Shown here: piece after piece, positions 7,443-56,941 of the stretch
Position numbering within the stretch: position 1 is the first letter of the stretch
Layout: every line of letters starts with the position of its first letter
Source of the DNA: a phage
Sequence record: PV730299.1
Direction: 5' to 3' (one strand)
Length of the DNA: 64,000 nucleotides
Made by a program: the position numbers and the translations under genes
The notes under the pieces: generated by a model
Seen by the model: only the letters and a program-made list of their open reading frames with translations
Told to the model about the DNA's origin: nothing
Databases searched by the model: none

Positions 7443-7521
7443 TTCCAGCCTCATGATGTAGTTGTAACTCTTCAATACAGATTAAATATTAGGCGATTAT
7501 TTCTTGAAAGTAAAGTTATTG

Positions 7522-12769: not shown

Positions 12770-13812
12770 ACTACACCTTCCAGGAACTTAGGATCAATGA
12801 TCTTGCGGTCAACCGGGGAATGGGTGAGCGCGGTGTTCAAGCCATGATCCTGAATCAGGTCCAGGTTAATGAGCTTTTCGTTCAGTTTGCAGTGCAGACA
12901 GTACGCCATCTGTACAATCAGGCCGCGATCCGCATCGTATTCCTTCAGGTGAGCAACCACAGTTTCCCACGGGCTACCGATATCACAGTGATGAAGCACA
13001 CCAGTGAACAGATTGCGGATATGGTTCTGGTTGGTCACGTTCGTGAAGTGAATCATGGAGTTGATGAACCCAGCTTCTACTTTGGTGTCCTTCGTGATCT
13101 TGCCCAGCTGCTTCTGGCTGACTTCATTGTTGTAGTAATGAAGATTGTTAGAGAATAGCTTGTACTGACCGACATCAACACCCAGCACCCGAGCAATCAC
13201 TTCCTGAAGAATAGAGAACTCAATGAAGTTAATTGAACTCATCCCCCACAGAACATCCTGTGAGCGATTGATGACCGTCAGGTTCAGACGACCTTCAACG
13301 ATGGCGAATAACAGAGCCAGGTTACACACCATGTCCTTGGTCTTCGCTTCGCCGCTCTCGCTGAACTTCGCCAGACCAGCATCCGAATCTAGAGCCGGGT
13401 CATAGATGGTGAGGTACGCCTGGCGAGTGTTTGGGTTCTTACGCAGGCGGTTGATAACGCTATCCAGCTGGTCATGGGCGTACAGACGCGGACCATAAGC
13501 AGCTCGCCATGTTACCCCATCATCCGAAAAGTTAGCAGCGCGAGGCAATACGCGTGACAGGAACTTTATGTCGTTGCGGCCTGACAACACCCAGAAGGTC
13601 TCGCCGATGGCAGCGATAGCCGATGAGTTGCGACCTTCAACGGAGAGCCAGCGGTCACGGATGTCGGCGACGGTTATGGTCACGCCATCAAGGAAGCGGG
13701 TGCTATCAGTATTGATTTCAGCATTACCAGGATCAGATTCGATCCCGAATTCACGGATAGCCAAGACAGCCTGCTTCAGCATGTCATTGTTGTTAATTGC
13801 TTTGATTTCCAT
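12766..13812 (-). CDS. thymidylate synthase-family enzyme (pyrimidine hydroxymethylase/methylase homolog)
   Basis: 348 aa; TS-fold signatures: DMVCNLALLF (aligns to TS LPPCHAL catalytic Cys), RQAYLTIYDP, NRSQDVLWGMSSINFIEFSIL; about 90-aa C-terminal extension; stop/start overlap (TGATG) with kinase gene. Confidence 0.7.
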   Translation of the reverse strand: MEIKAINNNDMLKQAVLAIREFGIESDPGNAEINTDSTRFLDGVTITVADIRDRWLSVEGRNSSAIAAIGETFWVLSGRNDIKFLSRVLPRAANFSDDGVTWRAAYGPRLYAHDQLDSVINRLRKNPNTRQAYLTIYDPALDSDAGLAKFSESGEAKTKDMVCNLALLFAIVEGRLNLTVINRSQDVLWGMSSINFIEFSILQEVIARVLGVDVGQYKLFSNNLHYYNNEVSQKQLGKITKDTKVEAGFINSMIHFTNVTNQNHIRNLFTGVLHHCDIGSPWETVVAHLKEYDADRGLIVQMAYCLHCKLNEKLINLDLIQDHGLNTALTHSPVDRKIIDPKFLEGVV

Positions 13813-14471
13813 CAGATACTCCCAAAATCACGACAGAGGAATGCCATCACAGCCTGGTCTACTGTTAGGCCGTGAGACTTCATCATACCCGCAGCCACCG
13901 TAGGGAACAAGCCTTTATGTCGTTGACGATGGTCATGAACTCTCTCCCACTTCTCGACCACCAGACTTTCATTGAAGTCCACACCACCGTTACGTGATTT
14001 AACGCGGGAGATACACGTTTCAAGGGGAGTGTCCATAAAGAGCACAACCAATTCACGTGGTGGGCGTGTCAGACGGGGGATCCAAGAACTCAATAATGTG
14101 GATGGAATGATACCTTCGAAAATCACATCATATTTCAAGTATTCTGGTTGGTCAGCAATAGACAACGCGAACAACATCTGCTCAGTGTCCTTCAGGGAAT
14201 CAACCCCCTTGGACTTCGACTTGTCATATTTACCGATACAGACCACGTTGAACGAAGGACAGACAGTCAGCATGACCTTGCCGTTATGGGTCACGACATA
14301 CGCCTGAGGATCCCTCTCCGCCAGCTGAGACGGCACAGTGGATTTACCGCTACCATTGGAGCCTTTGACGTAGTAGATTTGCCCTCGTGCTGGGTAGATC
14401 CCCTTTACGACGGGTGGTTTAAAGAATGTGTGGACGGGGCGCTTCATCAGCCCCTTCAGGGAGTAGGACAT
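13812..14471 (-). CDS. P-loop nucleotide/nucleoside kinase
   Basis: 219 aa; Walker A GSNGSGKST and LID-like DTPLETCISRVKSR. Confidence 0.55.
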   Translation of the reverse strand: MSYSLKGLMKRPVHTFFKPPVVKGIYPARGQIYYVKGSNGSGKSTVPSQLAERDPQAYVVTHNGKVMLTVCPSFNVVCIGKYDKSKSKGVDSLKDTEQMLFALSIADQPEYLKYDVIFEGIIPSTLLSSWIPRLTRPPRELVVLFMDTPLETCISRVKSRNGGVDFNESLVVEKWERVHDHRQRHKGLFPTVAAGMMKSHGLTVDQAVMAFLCRDFGSI

Positions 14472-23552: not shown

Positions 23553-25163
23553 ATGTTAGACAATATGAGATGGTTTTACGGCACCGTTGAAGATGTCAAC
23601 GATCCAGACCAAAACGGGCGCGTCGCCGTCCGCATATATGGCGTACACACCGACGATCCCGTCCTCCTGCCTACAGACAAACTCCCATGGGCGAAGGTAC
23701 TGATGCCTGCTTCTAACGCCTCCTCTGCTGGTTTAGGTTGGTCTCCAACGGGTATCATTCCTGGTACTGAGGTTATGGGGTTCGCCCTTGACGAAGCATA
23801 CCAGAATTTACGCATCACCTGGACTTGGACTGGTTCAAGCCCTACTGATGGCGCCGACACAAACCCGCTGGCTCTCGGGCAGGTCGTTCAATCTGTAGAA
23901 CGTCAGGCGTACAACGCTGTCACTGACGTTCCTGTGAAACAAGAAGACGAACCACAACCAGATCCACAACCACCTGTTGGTGGGTATGATCCAGAGAAGT
24001 GGATGACAATCGCTCGTGGCGAATTGGGTATCAAGGAGTACGCCGGAAAGTTCAATAACAACCCGCGCATTATAGAATATCACAAGACAACCTCCCTTGG
24101 TGCTTCTGAAGATGAAGTGTCGTGGTGTGCGGCGTTCGTGGGTTGGGTTATGATACAGGCTGGATACACGTCTACACGCTCCGCTCTTGCCCGATCTTAC
24201 CTTACATGGGGCACTGCACTGTCAGCACCACAATATGGCGCTATCGTAGTCTTCCGGCGTGGTAACAACCCTACATTTGGACACGTAGCGTTTGTGCAGA
24301 AGTTCGATGCAAACTATGTCTGGTGTATTGGTGGCAACCAATCCGATTCAGTGAAGGTCAGTCGTTTCAGACGTTCTTCGGTCTTGGGATATCGTTGGCC
24401 TGGTCCTGCTAACACAGCCACAGCCGCGCCTGCGCAGCAGAATGGTAAATGGTCAGAACCTATCCCAGATCGTACTCCAAAGGAACAACCGACTCCGGCT
24501 CCTACTGGGCGAGTACAGGATATTGACAACACTGGAGAAACCATGGTTCCGGCTGCGGGTGGCTCTAAATACCCGTACAATAACGTCATGGTGTCCCGAG
24601 CTGGGCATATTATGGAAGTGGATGACACCCCTGGTGGTGAACGTCTTCATTGGATGCATAAGTCTGGGTCTTACAAGCAAATGTTGCCGGATGGTGATGT
24701 GGTCAACAAGTCCGTCAAAGACCACTATGACCTGACGATGTTCAACAAGCGTTATTATGTCGGCGGGGACCACAACCTGACGGTCAAAGGAACTGAAGTT
24801 CAGCGCAAGACAGGTGAGGTCTATCATTTGCATTCCAACAATTACTCCAACGTGGTTGCGGGCACAGCGCTGATGAAATTCAGTGACCTAGCCGAGTTTC
24901 AAGCGCAGAATATTCTGCGCATTATCTGCGAGACTCTGGAGGTCGGTGGGACATTGAAGGTTCCTAAGATTCTAACGACTGAGATCATCGCTGACAAACT
25001 GACTGTCGCTCAGACGATCAATGGTAACATCATATATGCCGAAGGTGCTGGTCGCGCTTCTTCTCTGTCAGGTGCAACCCCTGCATCCCCTACGGGTCCG
25101 GGTGAGATTGACATCAAGGCAGAATTAAAAGACAATGGTGGTAATTTCGGCACCAAAGAGTAA
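23553..25163 (+). CDS. baseplate central spike/hub protein with CHAP peptidase domain (gp5-like)
   Basis: 536 aa; N-terminal OB-like YGTVEDVNDPDQNGRVAVRIYGVHTD; central Cys/His amidase pair (SWCAAFVGW ... FGHVAFV) typical of CHAP/NlpC-P60; C-terminal beta-helix-like region. Confidence 0.7.
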   Translation: MLDNMRWFYGTVEDVNDPDQNGRVAVRIYGVHTDDPVLLPTDKLPWAKVLMPASNASSAGLGWSPTGIIPGTEVMGFALDEAYQNLRITWTWTGSSPTDGADTNPLALGQVVQSVERQAYNAVTDVPVKQEDEPQPDPQPPVGGYDPEKWMTIARGELGIKEYAGKFNNNPRIIEYHKTTSLGASEDEVSWCAAFVGWVMIQAGYTSTRSALARSYLTWGTALSAPQYGAIVVFRRGNNPTFGHVAFVQKFDANYVWCIGGNQSDSVKVSRFRRSSVLGYRWPGPANTATAAPAQQNGKWSEPIPDRTPKEQPTPAPTGRVQDIDNTGETMVPAAGGSKYPYNNVMVSRAGHIMEVDDTPGGERLHWMHKSGSYKQMLPDGDVVNKSVKDHYDLTMFNKRYYVGGDHNLTVKGTEVQRKTGEVYHLHSNNYSNVVAGTALMKFSDLAEFQAQNILRIICETLEVGGTLKVPKILTTEIIADKLTVAQTINGNIIYAEGAGRASSLSGATPASPTGPGEIDIKAELKDNGGNFGTKE

Positions 25164-32723: not shown

Positions 32724-32834
32724 GATGTAATTCCTCATAATGTAGTTGGTGCGTTTCACTTTTCATTCGGCGGTGTGTTGTCGCCCTATGTGAACTATAA
32801 TAGTGCATCATTATTGAAGAGTAAAGTCTTTTTC

Positions 32835-34777: not shown

Positions 34778-34871
34778 GATTTGTTTCCTTAGAAAAAGAA
34801 ATCCCCCTGTATTTAGGGGGATCCAGTTACAGACCAAGTTCTTTCGCCGTGGCGTCGTCTAGTGCAACCTT

Positions 34872-41383: not shown

Positions 41384-43729
41384 TCAATCCTTCTTGATAA
41401 CTTCAGTCAGGCCGTTTCGCAGACCGTAGCGAATGTTGTGTTGGAAGTATTCCTGGAACTCCTGCTCACGCTGACTGATGACAAACAGGTTGTTCCCACC
41501 GAACTTATGCTTCAACATCTCAACAGATTCCTGCACCCCGCGCTCGCTCATGTTCTCAAGGATCTCGTCCAGCACGAACAGGTTACATTGTACAGACGCC
41601 TTGAGGTTAGCCACATCGCGCAGGGCTAATGTCACAGCCAGGTTCAGACGACTGCGCTGGCCAGTAGACAGGGAGAAGATACTCTGTCCTTTGCGACCTG
41701 CTGCGCTCATGGTGATCTCAAAGGTATCGTCAACAACGATGTCCAAGAACATGTTGAGGGCTTCAAGATACTCGTTGATCTTACTATTGAGGAATGGCAG
41801 ATACAGAGCGATGATACGCGCCTTGGTCTGGTCATCTTTCAAGAAGAACAGCAGGTGCTGTAAGTCCTGGAGTTCCTGGTCGGCATCCTCGCGGCGCTGG
41901 TATAGATCCTCCAGTTCACCTTCCAACGCAGCGATAGAGTTCTCTAGGTCGGTGGTAGGTGTTGGCTGTACAGCCAGTTTACGCTCCAGATCGGCAATAG
42001 ACGCCACGAGAGGAGCACGACGGGCTTTCAGCTCGGCGATCTTATCATCGACGACTTTAATCCCGCTGACGGCATTCTCTCGCGTCTGTTGCAGCGAAGC
42101 GGTGATGTCTTCAAAACGAACGTTCAGTGCCTTACGGATGTCAAGGATCTTCTGTTGGCATTCACGGTTCAGTGAATTACATTCAATCGTGGCGGTATCA
42201 TGAAAACCTTGAATATCACGGCGCAGCTGCTTGATGTTGTCAACGATTTCGTCGGCCTGCTTGCGCATTGCATCCAGTTCAGCATCCAACACAGCAATGT
42301 CAGCAACCAGCTTGTCGTCCTGAGCCTTGTGATCATCGATCAGGACATTGATATCGGCGGTAACTTTGTCCAGTTGATCTAACTTCGACTGTAGTTCCTG
42401 GATCTGAGGATTGTACTCACTCTCAATCCGCGCCTTGGTGTCATCAGACACCAGTTGGGTACATGTTGGGCAAGTCCCCATATCGTGGAAGCGCTTGATG
42501 GCCGACTGATGCCCCTCCATTTCAGTCTGGAACTTGATGCGGAAGTTCTCACCCTGTTGGCGACGCTGGATAGCAGCGTTCAGGGCGTCCAGATTTGTGT
42601 TGCGCTCGGTGAGCAGGGTGTTCTTGCGTTCGGCCACTGTAAAGGCGCGGTCACGCAAGACCTGAAGATCATGCTCCGCAGTAGACACTTCGATGCGCTC
42701 ATAATCGTCAGCCTTGTCCTGCGCGGCGTCCTTCACCGCCTGGATCTTGGTATCAAAGTCTTTCTTGACAGCCTCGATCTCTACCATGGATTCATCATGC
42801 AGGCGGCTTTCCACCGTCTTCATTTCCTGGGTGGCTTCAAACTCCACAGCCGTGAGGCGGGTGCGCTCTTCGTTCTGGGAAGCGATGTCGATATCCAGGG
42901 AATTCAGGGCTTCCTGTTGCTGTACAAGGATATCGGCCGATTGCTGTCGGATCAGGGCGTTGGATTGCTCGATCTGCTGAAGCTGCGTCTTCTTGTTGGT
43001 GTGGTCAACAACCTTCAGTGCGCATTCGTTAGATATAGAGTCCAGAGTTGCATTTGTCCTTTTGATGGCGGCCTTGACATCTTCGTTCATCAGGCTGAAG
43101 AAGCCCAAGTCCCAGATAGTCTCCACCATGGCGCGGCGGTCGGCTGTGTACATCTCCGTGAACGGAATGAACTTCTCTTTGCCCAGCACCAGAGAGTTCT
43201 CAAACATCTTCTGGTCCACGCCGATGAGGTTCACGATGTACTTGTTCATGTCGGCTTTGGCTGCTTCGTTATCGATCTTCAACCACTTGCCGTCCACCAT
43301 CTGGTATACTTCAACAAAGTCAGGTTTAATGCCACGGCGAACCTTCCATTCGCTACCACGGCAGGCAAACTCCACCTCACCCACACATTCCTTGCGGCTC
43401 TGTGAGTTAACCAGGCCTGCCTTCTTCTCCTTCTTGCTGTATGTGTCGTTGTACAGTACGAAAAACAGCAGCCATACCAGCATCGTGGATTTACCCGCGC
43501 CGTTGTCATCAGACGTGACAAGGGTGGCCGGGTTGCGCTGATAATCAATCTCCATGAACTGATTGCCGATGGAGCGGAAGTTCTTGGCGCGGCCTTTACG
43601 GAAGGTCAGTTTGTGTGTAACAACGTTACGCACTTCAAATGGGACTTCAACCTCGACCGGGGCGTCGGCTTCCTTCAAAAGATTACCAAATTTGGTCAAG
43701 ATATCTGTGCTCTGAGTCATGTTATGCAT
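41384..43729 (-). CDS. SbcC/Rad50-like recombination ATPase (T4 gp46-like)
   Basis: 781 aa; N-terminal P-loop (SDDNGAGKST), long coiled-coil with zinc hook CPTC, C-terminal signature/Walker B region. Confidence 0.85.
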   Translation of the reverse strand: MHNMTQSTDILTKFGNLLKEADAPVEVEVPFEVRNVVTHKLTFRKGRAKNFRSIGNQFMEIDYQRNPATLVTSDDNGAGKSTMLVWLLFFVLYNDTYSKKEKKAGLVNSQSRKECVGEVEFACRGSEWKVRRGIKPDFVEVYQMVDGKWLKIDNEAAKADMNKYIVNLIGVDQKMFENSLVLGKEKFIPFTEMYTADRRAMVETIWDLGFFSLMNEDVKAAIKRTNATLDSISNECALKVVDHTNKKTQLQQIEQSNALIRQQSADILVQQQEALNSLDIDIASQNEERTRLTAVEFEATQEMKTVESRLHDESMVEIEAVKKDFDTKIQAVKDAAQDKADDYERIEVSTAEHDLQVLRDRAFTVAERKNTLLTERNTNLDALNAAIQRRQQGENFRIKFQTEMEGHQSAIKRFHDMGTCPTCTQLVSDDTKARIESEYNPQIQELQSKLDQLDKVTADINVLIDDHKAQDDKLVADIAVLDAELDAMRKQADEIVDNIKQLRRDIQGFHDTATIECNSLNRECQQKILDIRKALNVRFEDITASLQQTRENAVSGIKVVDDKIAELKARRAPLVASIADLERKLAVQPTPTTDLENSIAALEGELEDLYQRREDADQELQDLQHLLFFLKDDQTKARIIALYLPFLNSKINEYLEALNMFLDIVVDDTFEITMSAAGRKGQSIFSLSTGQRSRLNLAVTLALRDVANLKASVQCNLFVLDEILENMSERGVQESVEMLKHKFGGNNLFVISQREQEFQEYFQHNIRYGLRNGLTEVIKKD

Positions 43730-50319: not shown

Positions 50320-50375
50320 GATATAGTCACTCAAATGAAAGGGCAGCTTTATGATAAGCCGCCCGAGGTTATTGA

Positions 50376-51350: not shown

Positions 51351-51680
51351 TTAACCCGAAACTTTATTTTGAAATCCGACAAAGTCCTGGGCAATCCCCC
51401 GACAATACATCAGGTCTTTCTTCGTTTGTGGACTGTTATCAGCCGCAGTCAGCATCATGGGAAGATCCAGCGCATTCTCTATCTGATCAACACTGAACAG
51501 ATCAAGGCGCTTCAGCTCCCCCTCGAAGTCGGACAGGAGGATAGATGTGTCTTTGTCATCTGGGTGGAACTGCTGATACGTCTCCATCCATGCCACACAT
51601 GTGTTCAGTTTGGACGGTGGCGCGGCGTTTACACACCCGGCTATCAGTACCAACAAGAGCAGGATTTTACATTTCATCAC
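51351..51680 (-). CDS. secreted protein (signal peptide)
   Basis: 109 aa; N-terminal MMKCKILLLLVLIAGCVNAA signal peptide. Confidence 0.45.
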   Translation of the reverse strand: MMKCKILLLLVLIAGCVNAAPPSKLNTCVAWMETYQQFHPDDKDTSILLSDFEGELKRLDLFSVDQIENALDLPMMLTAADNSPQTKKDLMYCRGIAQDFVGFQNKVSG

Positions 51681-52363
51681 TCGTTCTCCTTCATCATATT
51701 GTCGCAGTCAACACGAGTCTGCTGGAGTTCGCGCGACATGCGGGGATCATCAAGGTTCACGCTCAGATTCGTAGCCAGGTCTTTCAGACCGTTCTGAACC
51801 CTGTCTTCAAAGTAATAATCGTTCTCAACCAGCCAGGCTCTGAGACCAAGAGCGCGGGTGCGCCATTCCTTCTTCAGGACGCGATCAGAGGTCTGTGTAG
51901 CGCTGTATTCGAATACTTTGATGCACTGGTTGCCATCGTTGATAAGGTTCAGGTGGCGGCGACCAACCTGCACACCCTTCTGTAATGCCGGAGAAGGGAG
52001 CGAACGGCACTGTCTTACGGTCATTCGGCCTTGGGTGCCCATACGCCCAGTCATGATCAAATCGCCAGCCTCCATGCCTCCACGGTTAAATTCGTCGTCA
52101 TTGAGGTAGCCTTTGAGGTTATAGGCTCCCTGTTTGTAACGGTTGAACTCAATTCCGGCATTGACGACAGCAGTGGAGACGTTGCCTGTGTTCCAGAGTT
52201 CAGCGAAGTTCTCTATGGAACCAGACTTGTCGATGGCAACCGCCTGGGAGAACCCAGCGCAATAGGAAAGGTCGGACCACAGTTTATCACCTGTGGAGTT
52301 CAGCTTGGCAGCGGCGGGTAATGCCAGACCAACCAGCACAACCCCGAGGATTAAACGTTTCAT
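51677..52363 (-). CDS. secreted protein (signal peptide)
   Basis: Start moved to MKRLILGVVLVGLALPAAA with AAGGAG RBS; ORF-track N-terminal extension lacks RBS. Confidence 0.5.
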   Translation of the reverse strand: MKRLILGVVLVGLALPAAAKLNSTGDKLWSDLSYCAGFSQAVAIDKSGSIENFAELWNTGNVSTAVVNAGIEFNRYKQGAYNLKGYLNDDEFNRGGMEAGDLIMTGRMGTQGRMTVRQCRSLPSPALQKGVQVGRRHLNLINDGNQCIKVFEYSATQTSDRVLKKEWRTRALGLRAWLVENDYYFEDRVQNGLKDLATNLSVNLDDPRMSRELQQTRVDCDNMMKENE

Positions 52364-52442
52364 GGCGATTCTCCTTATTTCATTGGATGAAATGATAGGC
52401 GGCTCACCATGATGAGTAAAGGGATTCAATAAACTATCGTAT

Positions 52443-52892
52443 TCAGAAACGGGTATCACTGACCGTTCTGTATCGCACACCCTGAAACTGTTTAGCGAGT
52501 TTAACAAATTCCATCGCTGGCAAATCAACTTTGTAGACCTTCATGCGCTGTTTGCCGTCCATGTTCAACGCAGCGACAAATCGGTGAGAACCGTCAACAA
52601 CGTAATTGTCAGAAGACACCCAAACTCGACCCATAGGTTTCTTATTTCTGATGTTCTTCATGATCTTCCAGACCTTCATCTTGTTGATTTCGTTCTGGGT
52701 AAGACGAAGCATTTTGATGGGCACTTGCACAGCATCTATGGACACGCCGTTGTCTTCAAGATATTTGTGAAAATCTTCTTGTTTGTCGGCATCGATTTGC
52801 GGCATAGAAGAACGAGAAAGCCCGAGGTTCCCAACAGGAATCCTCAGGCCGTTAATGATGTTCAACCAGTCAATAAAAGATGTAAGGAACAT
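52443..52892 (-). CDS. ParB-like nuclease-domain protein
   Basis: 149 aa; ParB N-terminal domain signatures LRLTQNEINKMKV and VVDGSHRFVAAL. Confidence 0.5.
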   Translation of the reverse strand: MFLTSFIDWLNIINGLRIPVGNLGLSRSSMPQIDADKQEDFHKYLEDNGVSIDAVQVPIKMLRLTQNEINKMKVWKIMKNIRNKKPMGRVWVSSDNYVVDGSHRFVAALNMDGKQRMKVYKVDLPAMEFVKLAKQFQGVRYRTVSDTRF

Positions 52893-52924
52893 GACACACC
52901 TCGGGATATAGGGTTATCCCTTAG

Positions 52925-53116
52925 TTAGCGCATCCATCGATCCTTTCTCTCTTTCTCCTTGCGTTCGCGACGTTTCTGGTCGGATCGGAATAACCAATAG
53001 AAGAAGTTCCCACCCAAGATGAAAACCACCGCGATTATTACTAGGACACCCTTCACAATTTCCCAAACCAATTCTTTATCCAAATTATACCTCGTCTTCT
53101 TCAGGTCCACCGTCAA
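52925..53116 (-). CDS. small membrane protein
   Basis: 63 aa; single TM (VLVIIAVVFILGG) followed by highly basic tail. Confidence 0.35.
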   Translation of the reverse strand: MTVDLKKTRYNLDKELVWEIVKGVLVIIAVVFILGGNFFYWLFRSDQKRRERKEKERKDRWMR

Positions 53117-53372
53117 TCAGGATACGAGCGGCGTCGAAAGTTTCCCCGCCCGTGTTCAGCAGCTTGGTCAGATCGTCAAGATATCGGACCGTGCCAAGAT
53201 CAGACGACCGCGATATAAACTCCAGCATGCCATACAACGCTGTTTGGAATCGGCTGTTGTCGATATCGTTCTTTATTACCATCAGGCGCAAGATGTTCTC
53301 TGACTGAGTATGGCCAACACACGCCTTGTCTCTGATCATCTCCTTGATAGAACTTCTCTCTGATGGTGTCAT
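53085..53372 (-). CDS. hypothetical protein
   Basis: 95-aa ORF with ATGA overlap to next gene. Confidence 0.4.
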   Translation of the reverse strand: MTPSERSSIKEMIRDKACVGHTQSENILRLMVIKNDIDNSRFQTALYGMLEFISRSSDLGTVRYLDDLTKLLNTGGETFDAARILIDGGPEEDEV

Positions 53373-53743
53373 AACGTACCCCCGACAGAGATCAAGAACT
53401 CTTCTTGCATGGTCTTGACCGGGTGGTGGTTGCGGGTTTCGAACATGAAGCCCCAGCCACCGTCGGCGACGTTGCCAAAGGTCTTGACGCCAAAGGACTT
53501 CGTCCCGTTGGAGCAGGAATAGATGTCCAGGACGTATGGGCTACCCTGATTGTCGATCCCACGATTCACGTCGTCTGATACGCAGCGCTCAATCATCTTC
53601 CCGTTCTTATACAGAACGAGGTCTTGGCCATACGCCTTGAAAGCATAAACACCGTTGGTAGACACTCCGGTGATGACAGGAGGGGCGGAAACAGCAGCAA
53701 AGGAAGCGCCCAGCAGGGCAACAGCGAGGATTAACTTTTTCAT
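53369..53743 (-). CDS. secreted protein (signal peptide)
   Basis: Start at MKKLILAVALLGASFAAVSA with ACTATATC-ATG motif. Confidence 0.5.
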   Translation of the reverse strand: MKKLILAVALLGASFAAVSAPPVITGVSTNGVYAFKAYGQDLVLYKNGKMIERCVSDDVNRGIDNQGSPYVLDIYSCSNGTKSFGVKTFGNVADGGWGFMFETRNHHPVKTMQEEFLISVGGTL

Positions 53744-53802
53744 GATATAGTCTCTTGGTTTCAAATAGACGGGGTAATCATACCCCGCCCAAAGTTATAG
53801 AA

Positions 53803-54165: not shown

Positions 54166-54489
54166 TTATTTGCGCAGGGCAACCACGAGTTCAGCGAGTT
54201 CACCCATGGTCGGGTCATCGCCTTTACTACCCAGCCAACCGTCGTCGATTTCGACCTGAAACTCTTCTTCTAGTTCCATTACGATTTCGATGGCATCCAG
54301 TTCATCACCGCCGAGGTCTTTCTTGGTACGGAGGCCAGCCAGCTTGTCCAGGGCGTCCTCGTTCTGAGATGCCACGTCGTCCAGCAATTTACGCTTGTCA
54401 TCGTCACGCCACAGATCCATATTCAGATTGTCAGTGGCGTACTGAGCCAGATGACGCATGACTTCAACATATGTTGGTTTACTGCTCAT
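54166..54489 (-). CDS. acyl carrier protein-like protein lacking the phosphopantetheinyl serine (DEL instead of DSL)
   Basis: 107 aa; DLGGDELDAIEIVMELEEEFQVEIDD aligns with ACP helix II ([27 protein letters not shown]) but the Ser is Glu; GGGAG RBS; terminators on both sides. Confidence 0.6.
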   Translation of the reverse strand: MSSKPTYVEVMRHLAQYATDNLNMDLWRDDDKRKLLDDVASQNEDALDKLAGLRTKKDLGGDELDAIEIVMELEEEFQVEIDDGWLGSKGDDPTMGELAELVVALRK

Positions 54490-54498
54490 GCTACTTCT

Positions 54499-54526
54499 CC
54501 CAAAGAAAGGCGGGTTGCCCCGCCCG
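54499..54526 (-). terminator. rho-independent terminator/attenuator between vWA and ACP-like genes
   Basis: GGCGGG-ttgc-CCCGCC followed on minus strand by TTTCTTTGGG then ACP-like RBS. Confidence 0.6.
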
Positions 54527-54531
54527 TTGGA

Positions 54532-56733
54532 TTAGATTTTGATTTCTTTCTCTGTCAGTTCGGCAGTGACCTTGTACTTCACGCCATCCACTTCAACTTC
54601 CATGGTGGACTCTTCCAAGTCGAGGTCGGTGAACCAGCCATGGCCAGCAACGATACCATAAACCACTTTAGACAGCGTCTTGTTCAGGGCACGGACTTCG
54701 GTGATGGCCGCCTTGGCAGCAGCGTCGATCCAGTTTTCGATCAGATGTTTCTGTAAGGCTTCAGGCACGGCAGTGATCATAGGAGACTTCACGAATGCTT
54801 CGTACTCCTTCAGCGCATTGGCGATGAACAAGTCACCAGCATTGAGTTTCTTGTTCTCGGCAATCTTCTTCTGTACCGCTGCGATAGACGGTAGAGAAGA
54901 AGCGCCAGCGATCTTCACGTTCAGCTCACGGCTCATGTAGAAGTCGGTAGACTCTTTGGTCTCAGTCTTCGGTGAGAATCCGTAATCGCGGATGCCGTAG
55001 GAGGACAGGAACTCGGCCGCCTCAGCGCCGTACTGTACTGCCAGGCCTTTGGCGTTACCCTTACCAACCAGGGCGTCTCGATAGAACTTCAGCACCTTCT
55101 GCTTGCCTTTCAGGGCTTCCAGACGGACATTATCCGCAAAGAACTGAGCAGCACTGATGTTCTTGACCATGGCGCGGTTGACCAGTGGTACACTTTCCAG
55201 GTTCAGGACAAACACTTCTGGACCACCAAACACGTGGACACCCATTTCGATCAGCTTATGCACGACTTCGATATCAGCCTTGAACGGCAGAGTCTTCACG
55301 TTAATGATACCGTCTTTGACGATCGTGTAGTTGCGCCACTGGAAAGTATCCAGTTCTTCAGGCAGGCCGAACTTCTTCTGTGCGAATTCAGGCACAGCCA
55401 CAGTACCGTGTTGAATTGTACGCACACTGATGTTCGGGCGCTCGGAGTTATAGACCAAATCGCTGATTGGCACAACACCCAGGTCGTTGGTAGGTTCGAA
55501 CGTCGGGTTCCACTCTTCGTGCTCTGCCAGCTTGAGAGCCAGGGCTTTACGCTCTTCTTTGGACTGAGCATTCGCGATCTGTTCTGCCAGCTTGTCTTCG
55601 GTGTCGTCGGTTTTCTGCACAGTACCGCGCCCGATACTCTTATAGGAGAACATCGGATGCTTGGTAGCAACAGGCACACCAGCTTCAGCCAGGTACGTCA
55701 GCACATCAACAACGGTGGTCGCGTCTTCGGCCGGAACCAGGTCATAGTCAATACCGTCAACGCCGCGCAGCTGGTCGTCAACAATCGCCTGAACCAGATC
55801 GTTCTTGATGTTGGAGTAGTCCTGCTTGGTGAAGCAGTTGCTGTACTGTTTGATGAAGCGAACGTCACCCGTTTTCTTCAGTGCAGCCCACACCAGGTCC
55901 GCGTCCATGATGTGTACGCCGTAGAACGCCAGCACGTATGCCGCCTGGATATCCGTCAGACTATCCATCTGGTCGATCATGTTAGGGTTTACAACCCACA
56001 GCTTGGTGACGCTCTCAGGGATGCTCACATAGCCGACCGGGTGAGAGTCATCGTCCTGCACCGCCAGTACTGTTGCCACACCGTTTTCGACGTAGATGGC
56101 ATGGGTGTAGATGACTGGGACATCAACTTTCACCTTCGGCACTGATGACTTCAGCACGTTTTCCAGTTCGGTCTGGTATTCGGTCTGACCTTCGGCAAAC
56201 ACATGAGTCGCGCCAGAGCGCTCGGACATCAGAGCCAGCAGTTCGCGGTTACAGTGCCAGCCGTATTCGATGAAAGTAATGTTATCGAACACAGAAGGCA
56301 AGGTTTCGGCGACGGCCAGGATTTCGTTTGAGCGCCAGCAGTTGTCATAACCATCGGTCATGAATGCCAGGTTGTTGACGTAACCAGGTTTCTTCAGGTC
56401 ACGCGCAGTATCCATCGCCAGTTTCAACGGCTCAACGAAGCCAGTACATCCGGACGGTTGCAGGAAGCGATCGATCAGTTTGTTCAGCTCGCTCAGGTCA
56501 GACGCAGCACTAACCTGGCGGCCAGCGAACACAGTACCAAAGTCGCCTTTGGAGGAGAAATACAGAACGCTCACAGTGTCTTCCGGTTTCACCAGGGAAG
56601 GCAGGTTCTCCTTCAGATGCTTACGGACTTCAGGGAGCGCACGGTACATAGAGCCGGAAATGTCTACAACGATTACATGGTTGGACGGGGCAGCAGTCGC
56701 AACCGCATTCTTAAATTCTAATGATTCAATCAT
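54532..56733 (-). CDS. von Willebrand factor A (vWA) domain protein
   Basis: Start set at MIESLEF; MIDAS-like VIVVDISGSM near N-terminus followed by vWA-like fold; about 500-aa C-terminal region without recognised motifs. Confidence 0.6.
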   Translation of the reverse strand: MIESLEFKNAVATAAPSNHVIVVDISGSMYRALPEVRKHLKENLPSLVKPEDTVSVLYFSSKGDFGTVFAGRQVSAASDLSELNKLIDRFLQPSGCTGFVEPLKLAMDTARDLKKPGYVNNLAFMTDGYDNCWRSNEILAVAETLPSVFDNITFIEYGWHCNRELLALMSERSGATHVFAEGQTEYQTELENVLKSSVPKVKVDVPVIYTHAIYVENGVATVLAVQDDDSHPVGYVSIPESVTKLWVVNPNMIDQMDSLTDIQAAYVLAFYGVHIMDADLVWAALKKTGDVRFIKQYSNCFTKQDYSNIKNDLVQAIVDDQLRGVDGIDYDLVPAEDATTVVDVLTYLAEAGVPVATKHPMFSYKSIGRGTVQKTDDTEDKLAEQIANAQSKEERKALALKLAEHEEWNPTFEPTNDLGVVPISDLVYNSERPNISVRTIQHGTVAVPEFAQKKFGLPEELDTFQWRNYTIVKDGIINVKTLPFKADIEVVHKLIEMGVHVFGGPEVFVLNLESVPLVNRAMVKNISAAQFFADNVRLEALKGKQKVLKFYRDALVGKGNAKGLAVQYGAEAAEFLSSYGIRDYGFSPKTETKESTDFYMSRELNVKIAGASSLPSIAAVQKKIAENKKLNAGDLFIANALKEYEAFVKSPMITAVPEALQKHLIENWIDAAAKAAITEVRALNKTLSKVVYGIVAGHGWFTDLDLEESTMEVEVDGVKYKVTAELTEKEIKI

Positions 56734-56941
56734 TGTTCTCTTCGCCTTGTGCGTAAGGGTTAAGTTCAGACTCATCAGCGGCTTCGATGCGCGTCTTTAC
56801 AGAGTCCAGCATATTGTTGATAAATTCACGAGACTGCTCCAGCTGAGCCAAGAGCACATCCTTTGGAGCATAGTTCTGAATGCAAGCCGGAATACTTTCA
56901 GACGTCGCCTTCAGGTCGGTAAAACATTCTTTCAGTATCAT
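56726..56941 (-). CDS. hypothetical acidic protein
   Basis: 71-aa ORF overlapping vWA gene start by 8 nt. Confidence 0.35.
   Translation of the reverse strand: MILKECFTDLKATSESIPACIQNYAPKDVLLAQLEQSREFINNMLDSVKTRIEAADESELNPYAQGEENND

Follow-up and report, generated by a model that had tools for sequence, protein, structure and literature searches.

Reassessment of a spanin annotation in Vi01-like Ackermannviridae phages: a conserved gene pair with predicted signal peptides

Two-component spanins, such as lambda Rz/Rz1 and T4 PseT.3/PseT.2, are encoded by adjacent genes in an embedded, overlapped or separated arrangement, and their products, an i-spanin held in the inner membrane and an o-spanin which is an outer-membrane lipoprotein, fuse the two membranes at the last step of lysis. 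Periplasmic proteins of other kinds are also known: T4 Spackle (gp61.3) is a superinfection-exclusion protein which blocks the gp5 tail lysozyme from the periplasm, and the PliC/MliC-type periplasmic inhibitor families exist in both soluble and lipid-anchored versions. Here we compare with these systems a locus in a 64,000-nucleotide stretch of phage DNA (record PV730299.1; this whole stretch is called the window) in which six minus-strand genes, named A to F in their order on that strand, lie between positions 53743 and 51351, the last two, E and F, belonging to families that are labelled as spanin in many records. We consider it rather probable that the locus does not form a functional module and that its core, the E/F pair, encodes soluble periplasmic binding proteins and not a spanin.

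The source of the window is a Vi01-like Ackermannviridae phage. The 3.1 kb round the locus share 99.1% identity with PC3 and PH4, two Escherichia phages of the Ackermannviridae (Aglimvirinae), and the matches listed include many Vi01-like phages from Salmonella, Shigella and Enterobacter at 87-98% identity. Genes E (51677-52363, minus strand) and F (51351-51677, minus strand) overlap by 1 nt here (TGATG), and each of the 25 loci examined, at identities as low as about 32%, preserves their adjacency with an overlap of 1-4 nt as well as the gene order D-E-F. From their arrangement they appear to be a translationally coupled pair with a conserved sigma70-like promoter of their own.

Gene E encodes a predicted exported protein of 228 aa with four conserved cysteines, which matches only PHROGs of unknown function (PHROG 4260) and is called 'i-spanin' elsewhere. 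The sequence-only reading had held that the open reading frame (ORF) drawn for this gene was over-extended by 55 codons, and the orthologs bear this out. The mechanical ORF begins at a TTG at 52528 and would overlap gene D, while all the orthologs start at the Met at 52363, which has an AAGGAG ribosome-binding site 7 nt upstream. From this start the protein reads MKR-LILGVVLVGLAL-PAAA↓K (the arrow marks the predicted cleavage site here and below), that is, an n-region MKR, a 12-residue hydrophobic core and a c-region PAAA↓K, and P16-A17-x-A19 is invariant in 14 orthologs. An exhaustive hidden Markov model (HMM) search together with a profile word search gave seven distant homologs of 21-34% identity, all with classic signal peptides in which a core of 10-12 residues is followed by an AxA-type site. 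The cleavage sites read in the distant homologs were SAWS↓E, HASA↓A, TANA↓G, AHA↓T, ANA↓E, AHA↓A, AVA↓Q and AQA↓R.

The distribution of E is narrow. The exhaustive HMM search recovered 11 representatives at E<=1e-3 among 1.8 billion proteins; those whose contig was checked were all found in Ackermannviridae-like synteny, and all E homologs found come from Ackermannviridae-like contigs or from phages of Enterobacterales. Scans of IMG/VR with two of the distant homologs (P0068 and P0069) gave no matches. The conserved part of the protein is its N-terminal domain (about residues 20-115), which is kept in Serratia phage 3M and its relatives, where E is shortened to about 125-126 aa. All four cysteines are kept in full-length relatives and the short form retains the first and the last only, which suggests that the disulfides would be C35-C220 and C119-C147 and marks the N-terminal domain as the core. 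In Salmonella phage 38 the E ortholog (P0030 and P0070) is split into ORFs of 162 and 73 aa by a frameshift or a sequencing error; if this split is real, the C-terminal half of E would be dispensable for plaque formation.

Gene F, which starts at an ATG at 51677 or a GTG at 51680, encodes a predicted exported protein of 108 aa that matches PHROG 3843 at 1e-54 and no other PHROG. Its N-terminus, MKCK-ILLLLVLIAG-C-VNA↓AP, contains both a lipobox (IAG↓C) and a signal peptidase I (SPase I) site, and the residue at +2 of the lipobox (LIAG↓C-V) is Val, hence not Asp. The sequence-only reading had not recorded this lipobox, and it is not a feature of the family at large. Six of the 36 F protein clusters have it, the lineage of the window among them (counted by reading the listing; a script tally gave 5, having skipped P0034), amounting to about 49 of about 200 member sequences, and it was seen in 3 of 19 IMG/VR loci. 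Within the lipobox subgroup a variant of 93% identity carries ...MAGS... in place of ...AGC..., a change of the Cys to Ser. In the distant loci L023, L024 (Serratia phage 3M) and L032 the signal peptide of the F homolog is of the plain AxA kind and has no lipobox; the F homolog of L033 shows a weak TAS-C lipobox possibility. A18-x-P20 is invariant in 21 orthologs, and C27 and C92 are likewise invariant. This distribution points to a lipobox that may have been gained secondarily in the sublineage of this phage, where F may be tethered to the outer membrane. The model of F is a compact five-helix bundle (predicted local distance difference test score, pLDDT, 84; at least 90 in the mature part) for which no structural neighbours were found, PDB included.

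Together with gene A (53369-53743, minus strand; 124 aa, PHROG 5474 of unknown function), E and F account for the three signal-peptide genes that had been noticed among five minus-strand genes of the locus, and all five are present. Each of the three products begins with a short basic n-region and a hydrophobic core within the range of 7-15 residues, followed by small residues at -3/-1; these n-, h- and c-regions are conserved in orthologs, and we regard the predicted signal peptides as genuine, those of A, E and F all fitting the SPase I type. In A the N-terminus reads MKKLILAVALLGASFAAVSA↓PP, and since the Pro at +1 blocks the AVSA↓PP site, cleavage at SFA↓A is likelier; the signal peptide is retained in A orthologs that are only 50% identical. 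The mature parts contain two (A), four (E) and two (F) conserved cysteines, compared with one, none and none in the neighbouring B, C and D, and such even numbers fit folding in the oxidising periplasm. A heuristic scan for signal peptides over every ORF of the window with an ATG start and a length of 60 aa or more matched A, E, F and two plus-strand ORFs (13676-13903 and 42671-43405), the last two of which are likely spurious. Virion components would have been another explanation for exported products, and none of the products of A, E, F, C and D was found in the published virion proteome table of phage Sajous1.

Promoter motifs point to expression of E and F before the late genes. In the near-identical phage PC3 the motif aCTAAATA is found upstream of structural genes, 20-60 nt from many of them, and it is probably the late promoter of the family. 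In the window, CTAAATA sites occur at 24565 (plus strand) and at 34810, 40020 and 40607 (minus strand), with none within 49-57.5 kb, and the T4 late promoter TATAAATA has three sites in the window, none of them near the locus. What precedes E is a candidate sigma70-like promoter (52392-52421, minus strand; CTTTACT-N17-TATCAT) ending 29 nt upstream of the start codon. In the spacer between D and E, the 15 related loci that were inspected keep the element CCTTTACTCA-N17-TAnnAT; L023 and L024 depart from it. Three copies of the pattern CTTTACT-N15-19-TAnnAT are present in the window, where 0.08 would be expected, each of them on the minus (coding) strand. The recurrent sites, with spacers of 16 or 17 nt, are at 7486-7515, 32797-32826 and 52392-52421, and they may represent a class of early or middle promoters. 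Given the lack of CTAAATA at 49-57.5 kb and the conserved sigma70-like element before E, these two genes are probably not late genes. Literature searches found no relevant Ackermannviridae transcriptomes.

The locus is placed among replication and nucleotide-metabolism genes, encoding a von Willebrand A-domain (vWA) protein, an acyl carrier protein, an HU-like protein, a helicase, RNase H and the gp55 late sigma factor, and is a run of small non-late genes, not one functional module. Upstream the run is bounded by an intrinsic-terminator-like site after the vWA gene (54508-54525, minus strand), at the equivalent of which the records of phages Marshall and Maynard annotate a terminator, and downstream by a similar site (50341-50364, minus strand) after the 312-aa gene that follows F. 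A stable RNA hairpin (53766-53791, minus strand; 11-bp stem, then a weak U tract; free energy -18.8 kcal/mol, z -4.2) stands between the upstream 79-aa gene and A. All 23 related loci keep D, E and F in synteny, and 21 have B (53085-53372, minus strand; 95 aa, acidic, without export signal, PHROG 4458 of unknown function), at 27-100% identity, while A is present in 11 and C in 9. A and C are accessory genes. Consistent with this, tblastn found A in 105 phage records as compared with 282 that contain an E-family homolog. The A ortholog of Salmonella phage Marshall (L006/L001) has an in-frame deletion of 22 residues (102 instead of 124 aa), which fits A being dispensable. Gene C (52925-53083, minus strand; PHROG 14464, 'membrane protein') had been described as a 63-aa protein with a single transmembrane segment and a basic tail. 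The segment and the tail stand, there being one hydrophobic span of 21 residues and a net-basic stretch of 20 residues at the C-terminus with 11 K/R and 5 D/E, but the length probably does not: the 63-aa ORF (TTG at 53116) overlaps the preceding gene, and orthologs start with TTG, ATG or GTG at 53083, behind a GAGGT site, which gives a bitopic membrane protein of 52 aa, here with a TTG start.

The spanin label of E and F can be followed to Salmonella phage Marshall, where the orthologs Marshall_94 and Marshall_95 were annotated as i-spanin and o-spanin. From this one student-annotated genome the label has spread to PHROGs, RefSeq and UniRef, including orthologs devoid of a lipobox: it is repeated in many later records, PHROG 3843 is labelled 'Rz-like spanin', and UniRef names the E orthologs 'I-spanin', with GenBank records likewise. 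The spanin census of Kongari et al. 2018 (PMC6139136) enters the Marshall pair as a two-component spanin and a singleton, its periplasmic length of 300 residues exceeding that of all the others. In the same census Maynard, Vi01, SFP10, SJ2, SJ3, AG3, CBA120, ECML-4, PhaxI and RC-2014 are listed as spanin-less, and of these Maynard and AG3 were confirmed here to carry this same region. The listing of such relatives as spanin-less means that the Marshall call rests on annotation and not on a property of the family. No experiment on outer-membrane disruption by E or F was found in the literature searched.

We propose instead that E and F would be exported by the Sec pathway, cleaved by SPase I and stabilised by disulfides, and that they would work as soluble periplasmic binding proteins, probably complexed with each other through the N-terminal domain of E. 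Made before the late genes, they would most likely act, from the early or middle stage of infection onwards, on a target in the periplasm, either some component of the enterobacterial envelope or the apparatus with which a superinfecting phage penetrates the cell. A would then be an exported protein in its own right and C a small membrane protein, both of them accessory, and D an unrelated cytoplasmic protein of ParB/Srx fold that is merely syntenic. Proteins that are exported, disulfide-bonded, not late and only optionally anchored have the signature of binding or inhibitor proteins and not that of a membrane-fusion machine. By analogy, a role in envelope protection or manipulation, taken as a broad category that includes superinfection exclusion, seems to us an evenly balanced proposition, and such roles are more likely than the one that the spanin label implies. 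It is a possible but clearly more doubtful proposal that E and F are an Ackermannviridae-specific pair with new folds which excludes superinfecting phages or manipulates an envelope component of Enterobacterales early in infection, or else disrupts the envelope independently of an anchor. Searches of A, D, E and F by profile and by sequence in PDB, Pfam, NCBIfam and PADLOC gave nothing significant, and neither these nor a structure search with F linked A, E or F to a family, a defence-system model or a solved or predicted structure of known role.

A functional parallel is T4 Spackle. Like it, F is small, Sec-exported by prediction, helical and disulfide-containing, and it comes from a T4-like virulent phage in which it lies among early replication genes; the phage studied here also has a gp5-like hub lysozyme. 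The variation in anchoring has its own parallel in the PliC/MliC-type inhibitors, given that the F family likewise shows either a plain signal peptide or a lipobox. A family with plain or lipidated signals is what would be expected if a periplasmic binding activity were independent of anchoring. This parallel is an analogy only, E and F having no relationship to those inhibitors in sequence, motif or fold.

Several points weigh against a soluble periplasmic pair. The role proposed for E and F was reached by analogy and by exclusion of alternatives. Similarity of F to the fold of Spackle was tested and was not found, so the likeness is functional and not one of homology. The AlphaFold2 model of E, built with 14 orthologs, is unusable (pLDDT 34); signal peptides, export, cleavage and lipidation were called by sequence rules only; and the promoter of E was called from a consensus match and its conservation, not from transcript data. 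Moreover, some features are those that would be expected if E were an inner-membrane i-spanin and F an outer-membrane o-spanin that fuse the membranes at the last step of lysis. In this genome the lipobox of F, with its non-Asp residue at +2, is as in an o-spanin; a lipoprotein gene behind a gene with an N-terminal hydrophobic segment is the very pattern that spanin hunters search for; and no other spanin or holin has been recognised in the family, so the role needs filling. The annotation of the Marshall pair, the labels derived from it and the census count speak for the same explanation, and E and F resemble Rz/Rz1 and PseT.3/PseT.2 in their adjacent, overlapping genes, in their envelope-targeted products, in the lipobox of the second gene as found here and in the periplasmic cysteines of both proteins.

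Nevertheless we hold an Rz/Rz1-type spanin to be unlikely. An i-spanin has an uncleaved N-terminal transmembrane domain of type II topology (N-in/C-out), whereas E has a cleavable signal peptide in its place: in every subfamily a hydrophobic core of 10-12 residues, which is not long enough to cross a membrane, is joined to a conserved AxA, a design for cleavage. The lipobox of F is limited to a minority sublineage, the Cys being absent from 30 of the 36 clusters and from distant relatives, with the change to Ser within the subgroup itself, and F is a compact bundle of helices. E is cut naturally to 126 aa in Serratia phage 3M, no late promoter is found at the locus, and the census itself lists close relatives as spanin-less. 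Neither protein has homology to validated spanins, as no other spanin PHROG was matched, nor anything in Pfam, NCBIfam or PDB. An Rz1-like ORF embedded in E was also considered, and none with a lipobox was seen in the ORF list or in the lipobox scan. As far as predicted features go, the annotation thus fails at the family level on two defining ones, the anchor and the lipobox, and the features that are present, adjacency and the lipobox of this genome, are those that triggered it. It is more likely that E and F do not act as a spanin of this type, because family-wide neither partner appears to have the membrane anchor needed to span and fuse both membranes. Other functions linked to lysis fare no better. 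E, F or both could be lysis-timing proteins, a periplasmic antiholin or a lysis-inhibition sensor comparable to T4 RI, which binds the periplasmic domain of the holin T: rIIA and rIIB are present in this T4-like phage, the family has neither an identified holin nor an identified antiholin, and F, being small, exported, helical and disulfide-bearing, resembles RI. We give this little credence, since comparison by sequence and fold matched neither RI nor T nor any PDB entry, a holin whose periplasmic domain could be the partner is not known here, and E, which is without a cytoplasmic N-terminus or a stable transmembrane segment, is not a T-type holin. The missing holin might be sought in C, which would then form a cryptic partial lysis cassette with E and F; its size, single hydrophobic span and highly charged C-terminus are typical of holins, the family has no known holin, and Pfam gives a match to Phage_holin_2_4 (E=0.04). 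This match scores 14 bits against a cutoff of 30, the endolysin gene is elsewhere and the locus is without a late promoter. C is moreover absent from 14 of the 23 related loci, including many of Kuttervirus, which is incompatible with an essential family-wide holin, and we regard this function of C as very improbable.

The sequence-only reading had grouped these genes as a cluster which suggested superinfection exclusion, envelope remodelling or receptor masking, roles that are plausible, and a co-functioning 2.4-kb island from A to F can indeed be defended, as all its genes are on one strand between two terminator-like sites and A, E and F are the only credible matches of the signal-peptide scan in the window. 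The grouping does not survive comparison with relatives. The occurrence of A in 11 and of C in 9 of the 23 loci contrasts with that of D, E and F in all, a strong hairpin precedes A, and E has a separate conserved promoter. D is retained in Vibrio phage K474, whose replication genes show the same synteny, but there the helicase gene comes directly after D and the E/F pair is absent from that place; in Ralstonia phage Gervaise, D is a domain of a giant protein; and a recombination joint lies between D and E. By a rough estimate the chance of A lying near E/F is about 0.1; as E and F count as a single coupled unit and most relatives lack A, this proximity is not statistically compelling. We therefore think such an island quite improbable.

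Gene D (52443-52892, minus strand; 149 aa, predicted cytoplasmic) had been taken for a ParB-like nuclease-domain protein. Its length and its motif hold, the similarity to ParB is weak, and nuclease function is not implied because the nearest characterised relative, the free serine kinase SerK (PDB 5x0j; a weak match with E=1.5), is a kinase. D matches PHROG 2859 at 9e-45 and PHROG 1033, 'ParB-like partition protein', at 5e-4; D itself has no Pfam match at E<=1, ParBc included, while two of seven homologs match PF08857 ParBc_2 (best E 0.0025) and one matches DndB at 0.15. The VVDGSHRFVAAL motif is present in D, a DGxHR-type motif after a beta-strand, with an upstream L.pTQ segment; D100, G101, H103 and Q66 are invariant in the seven homologs, down to 24% identity, and the R after the H is not (L031 has H-Q). 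With the ParBc_2 branch of the ParB/Srx superfamily D shares a segment ...LTQ..N..KV... followed by the core vs.DnyvvDGsHRf.AA. It differs in that it has no match to canonical ParBc (PF02195), no helix-turn-helix and no dimerisation domain, and its matches are below curated thresholds. These weak but convergent similarities suggest a ParB/Srx-like domain protein of ParBc_2 type. Its homologs are more widespread than those of E and F, occurring in Vibrio, Aeromonas, Delftia (PhiW-14) and Stenotrophomonas phages, and the domain lies inside a protein of 4,511 aa in Ralstonia phage Gervaise. In genes 72-77 of Delftia phage PhiW-14 (L029) the D homolog (gene 75) is three genes from aG/PT-PPlase1 (gp72), which belongs to the thymidine-hypermodification pathway, and adjoins dCMP deaminase, and Ackermannviridae also hypermodify thymidine. 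The possibility that D is the 5-hydroxymethyldeoxyuridine (5-hmdU) DNA kinase of the thymidine-hypermodification pathway was considered and rejected, the kinase of PhiW-14 being gp37 and its D homolog gene 75. A link between D and DNA modification is conceivable from this gene context.

The junction between D and E (52363-52443) is a mosaic joint. D of the window is 97-98% identical to most Kuttervirus D proteins and yet only 84% identical to those of Marshall and Maynard; E and F are 98-99% identical to Marshall and Maynard, and other Kuttervirus reach only 89-95% for E and ~70% for F. These opposite patterns of identity indicate recombination between D and E. Just upstream of the run of small genes lie the genes for the vWA protein (54532-56775, minus strand; 747 aa) and for the acyl carrier protein (54166-54489, minus strand), which are kept throughout the family and in the distant loci L023, L024, L032 and L033. 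Soon after F, the loci L023 (6028-7028) and L033 (5721-6716) have genes for a polytopic membrane protein of small size and for a lipoprotein of the Band_7/SPFH type (lipobox LLTGC and LTGC); a similar SPFH lipoprotein was detected in Sajous1 virion preparations.

Ackermannviridae phages (Vi01, CBA120 and their relatives) have found wide use in the biocontrol and the typing of Salmonella, E. coli O157, Klebsiella and Dickeya. In the literature searched no holin is reported for the family, and its only 'spanin' is the E/F pair. In PC3, outside the window, there is a lipobox protein of 113 aa (138726-139067, minus strand; ...FSTTAC) and, not adjacent to it, a 189-aa protein with an N-terminal hydrophobic span of 27 residues (131618-132187, minus strand), which are the kind of genes for a renewed search for spanin and holin in this family. 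The outcome of this analysis is a correction of annotation and a testable lead, not the demonstration of a new mechanism. The failure of the spanin label leaves the family with no identified spanin or holin and raises anew the question of how these phages get through the outer membrane, and E and F, as a conserved and highly specific exported pair, become candidates for superinfection exclusion or envelope manipulation.

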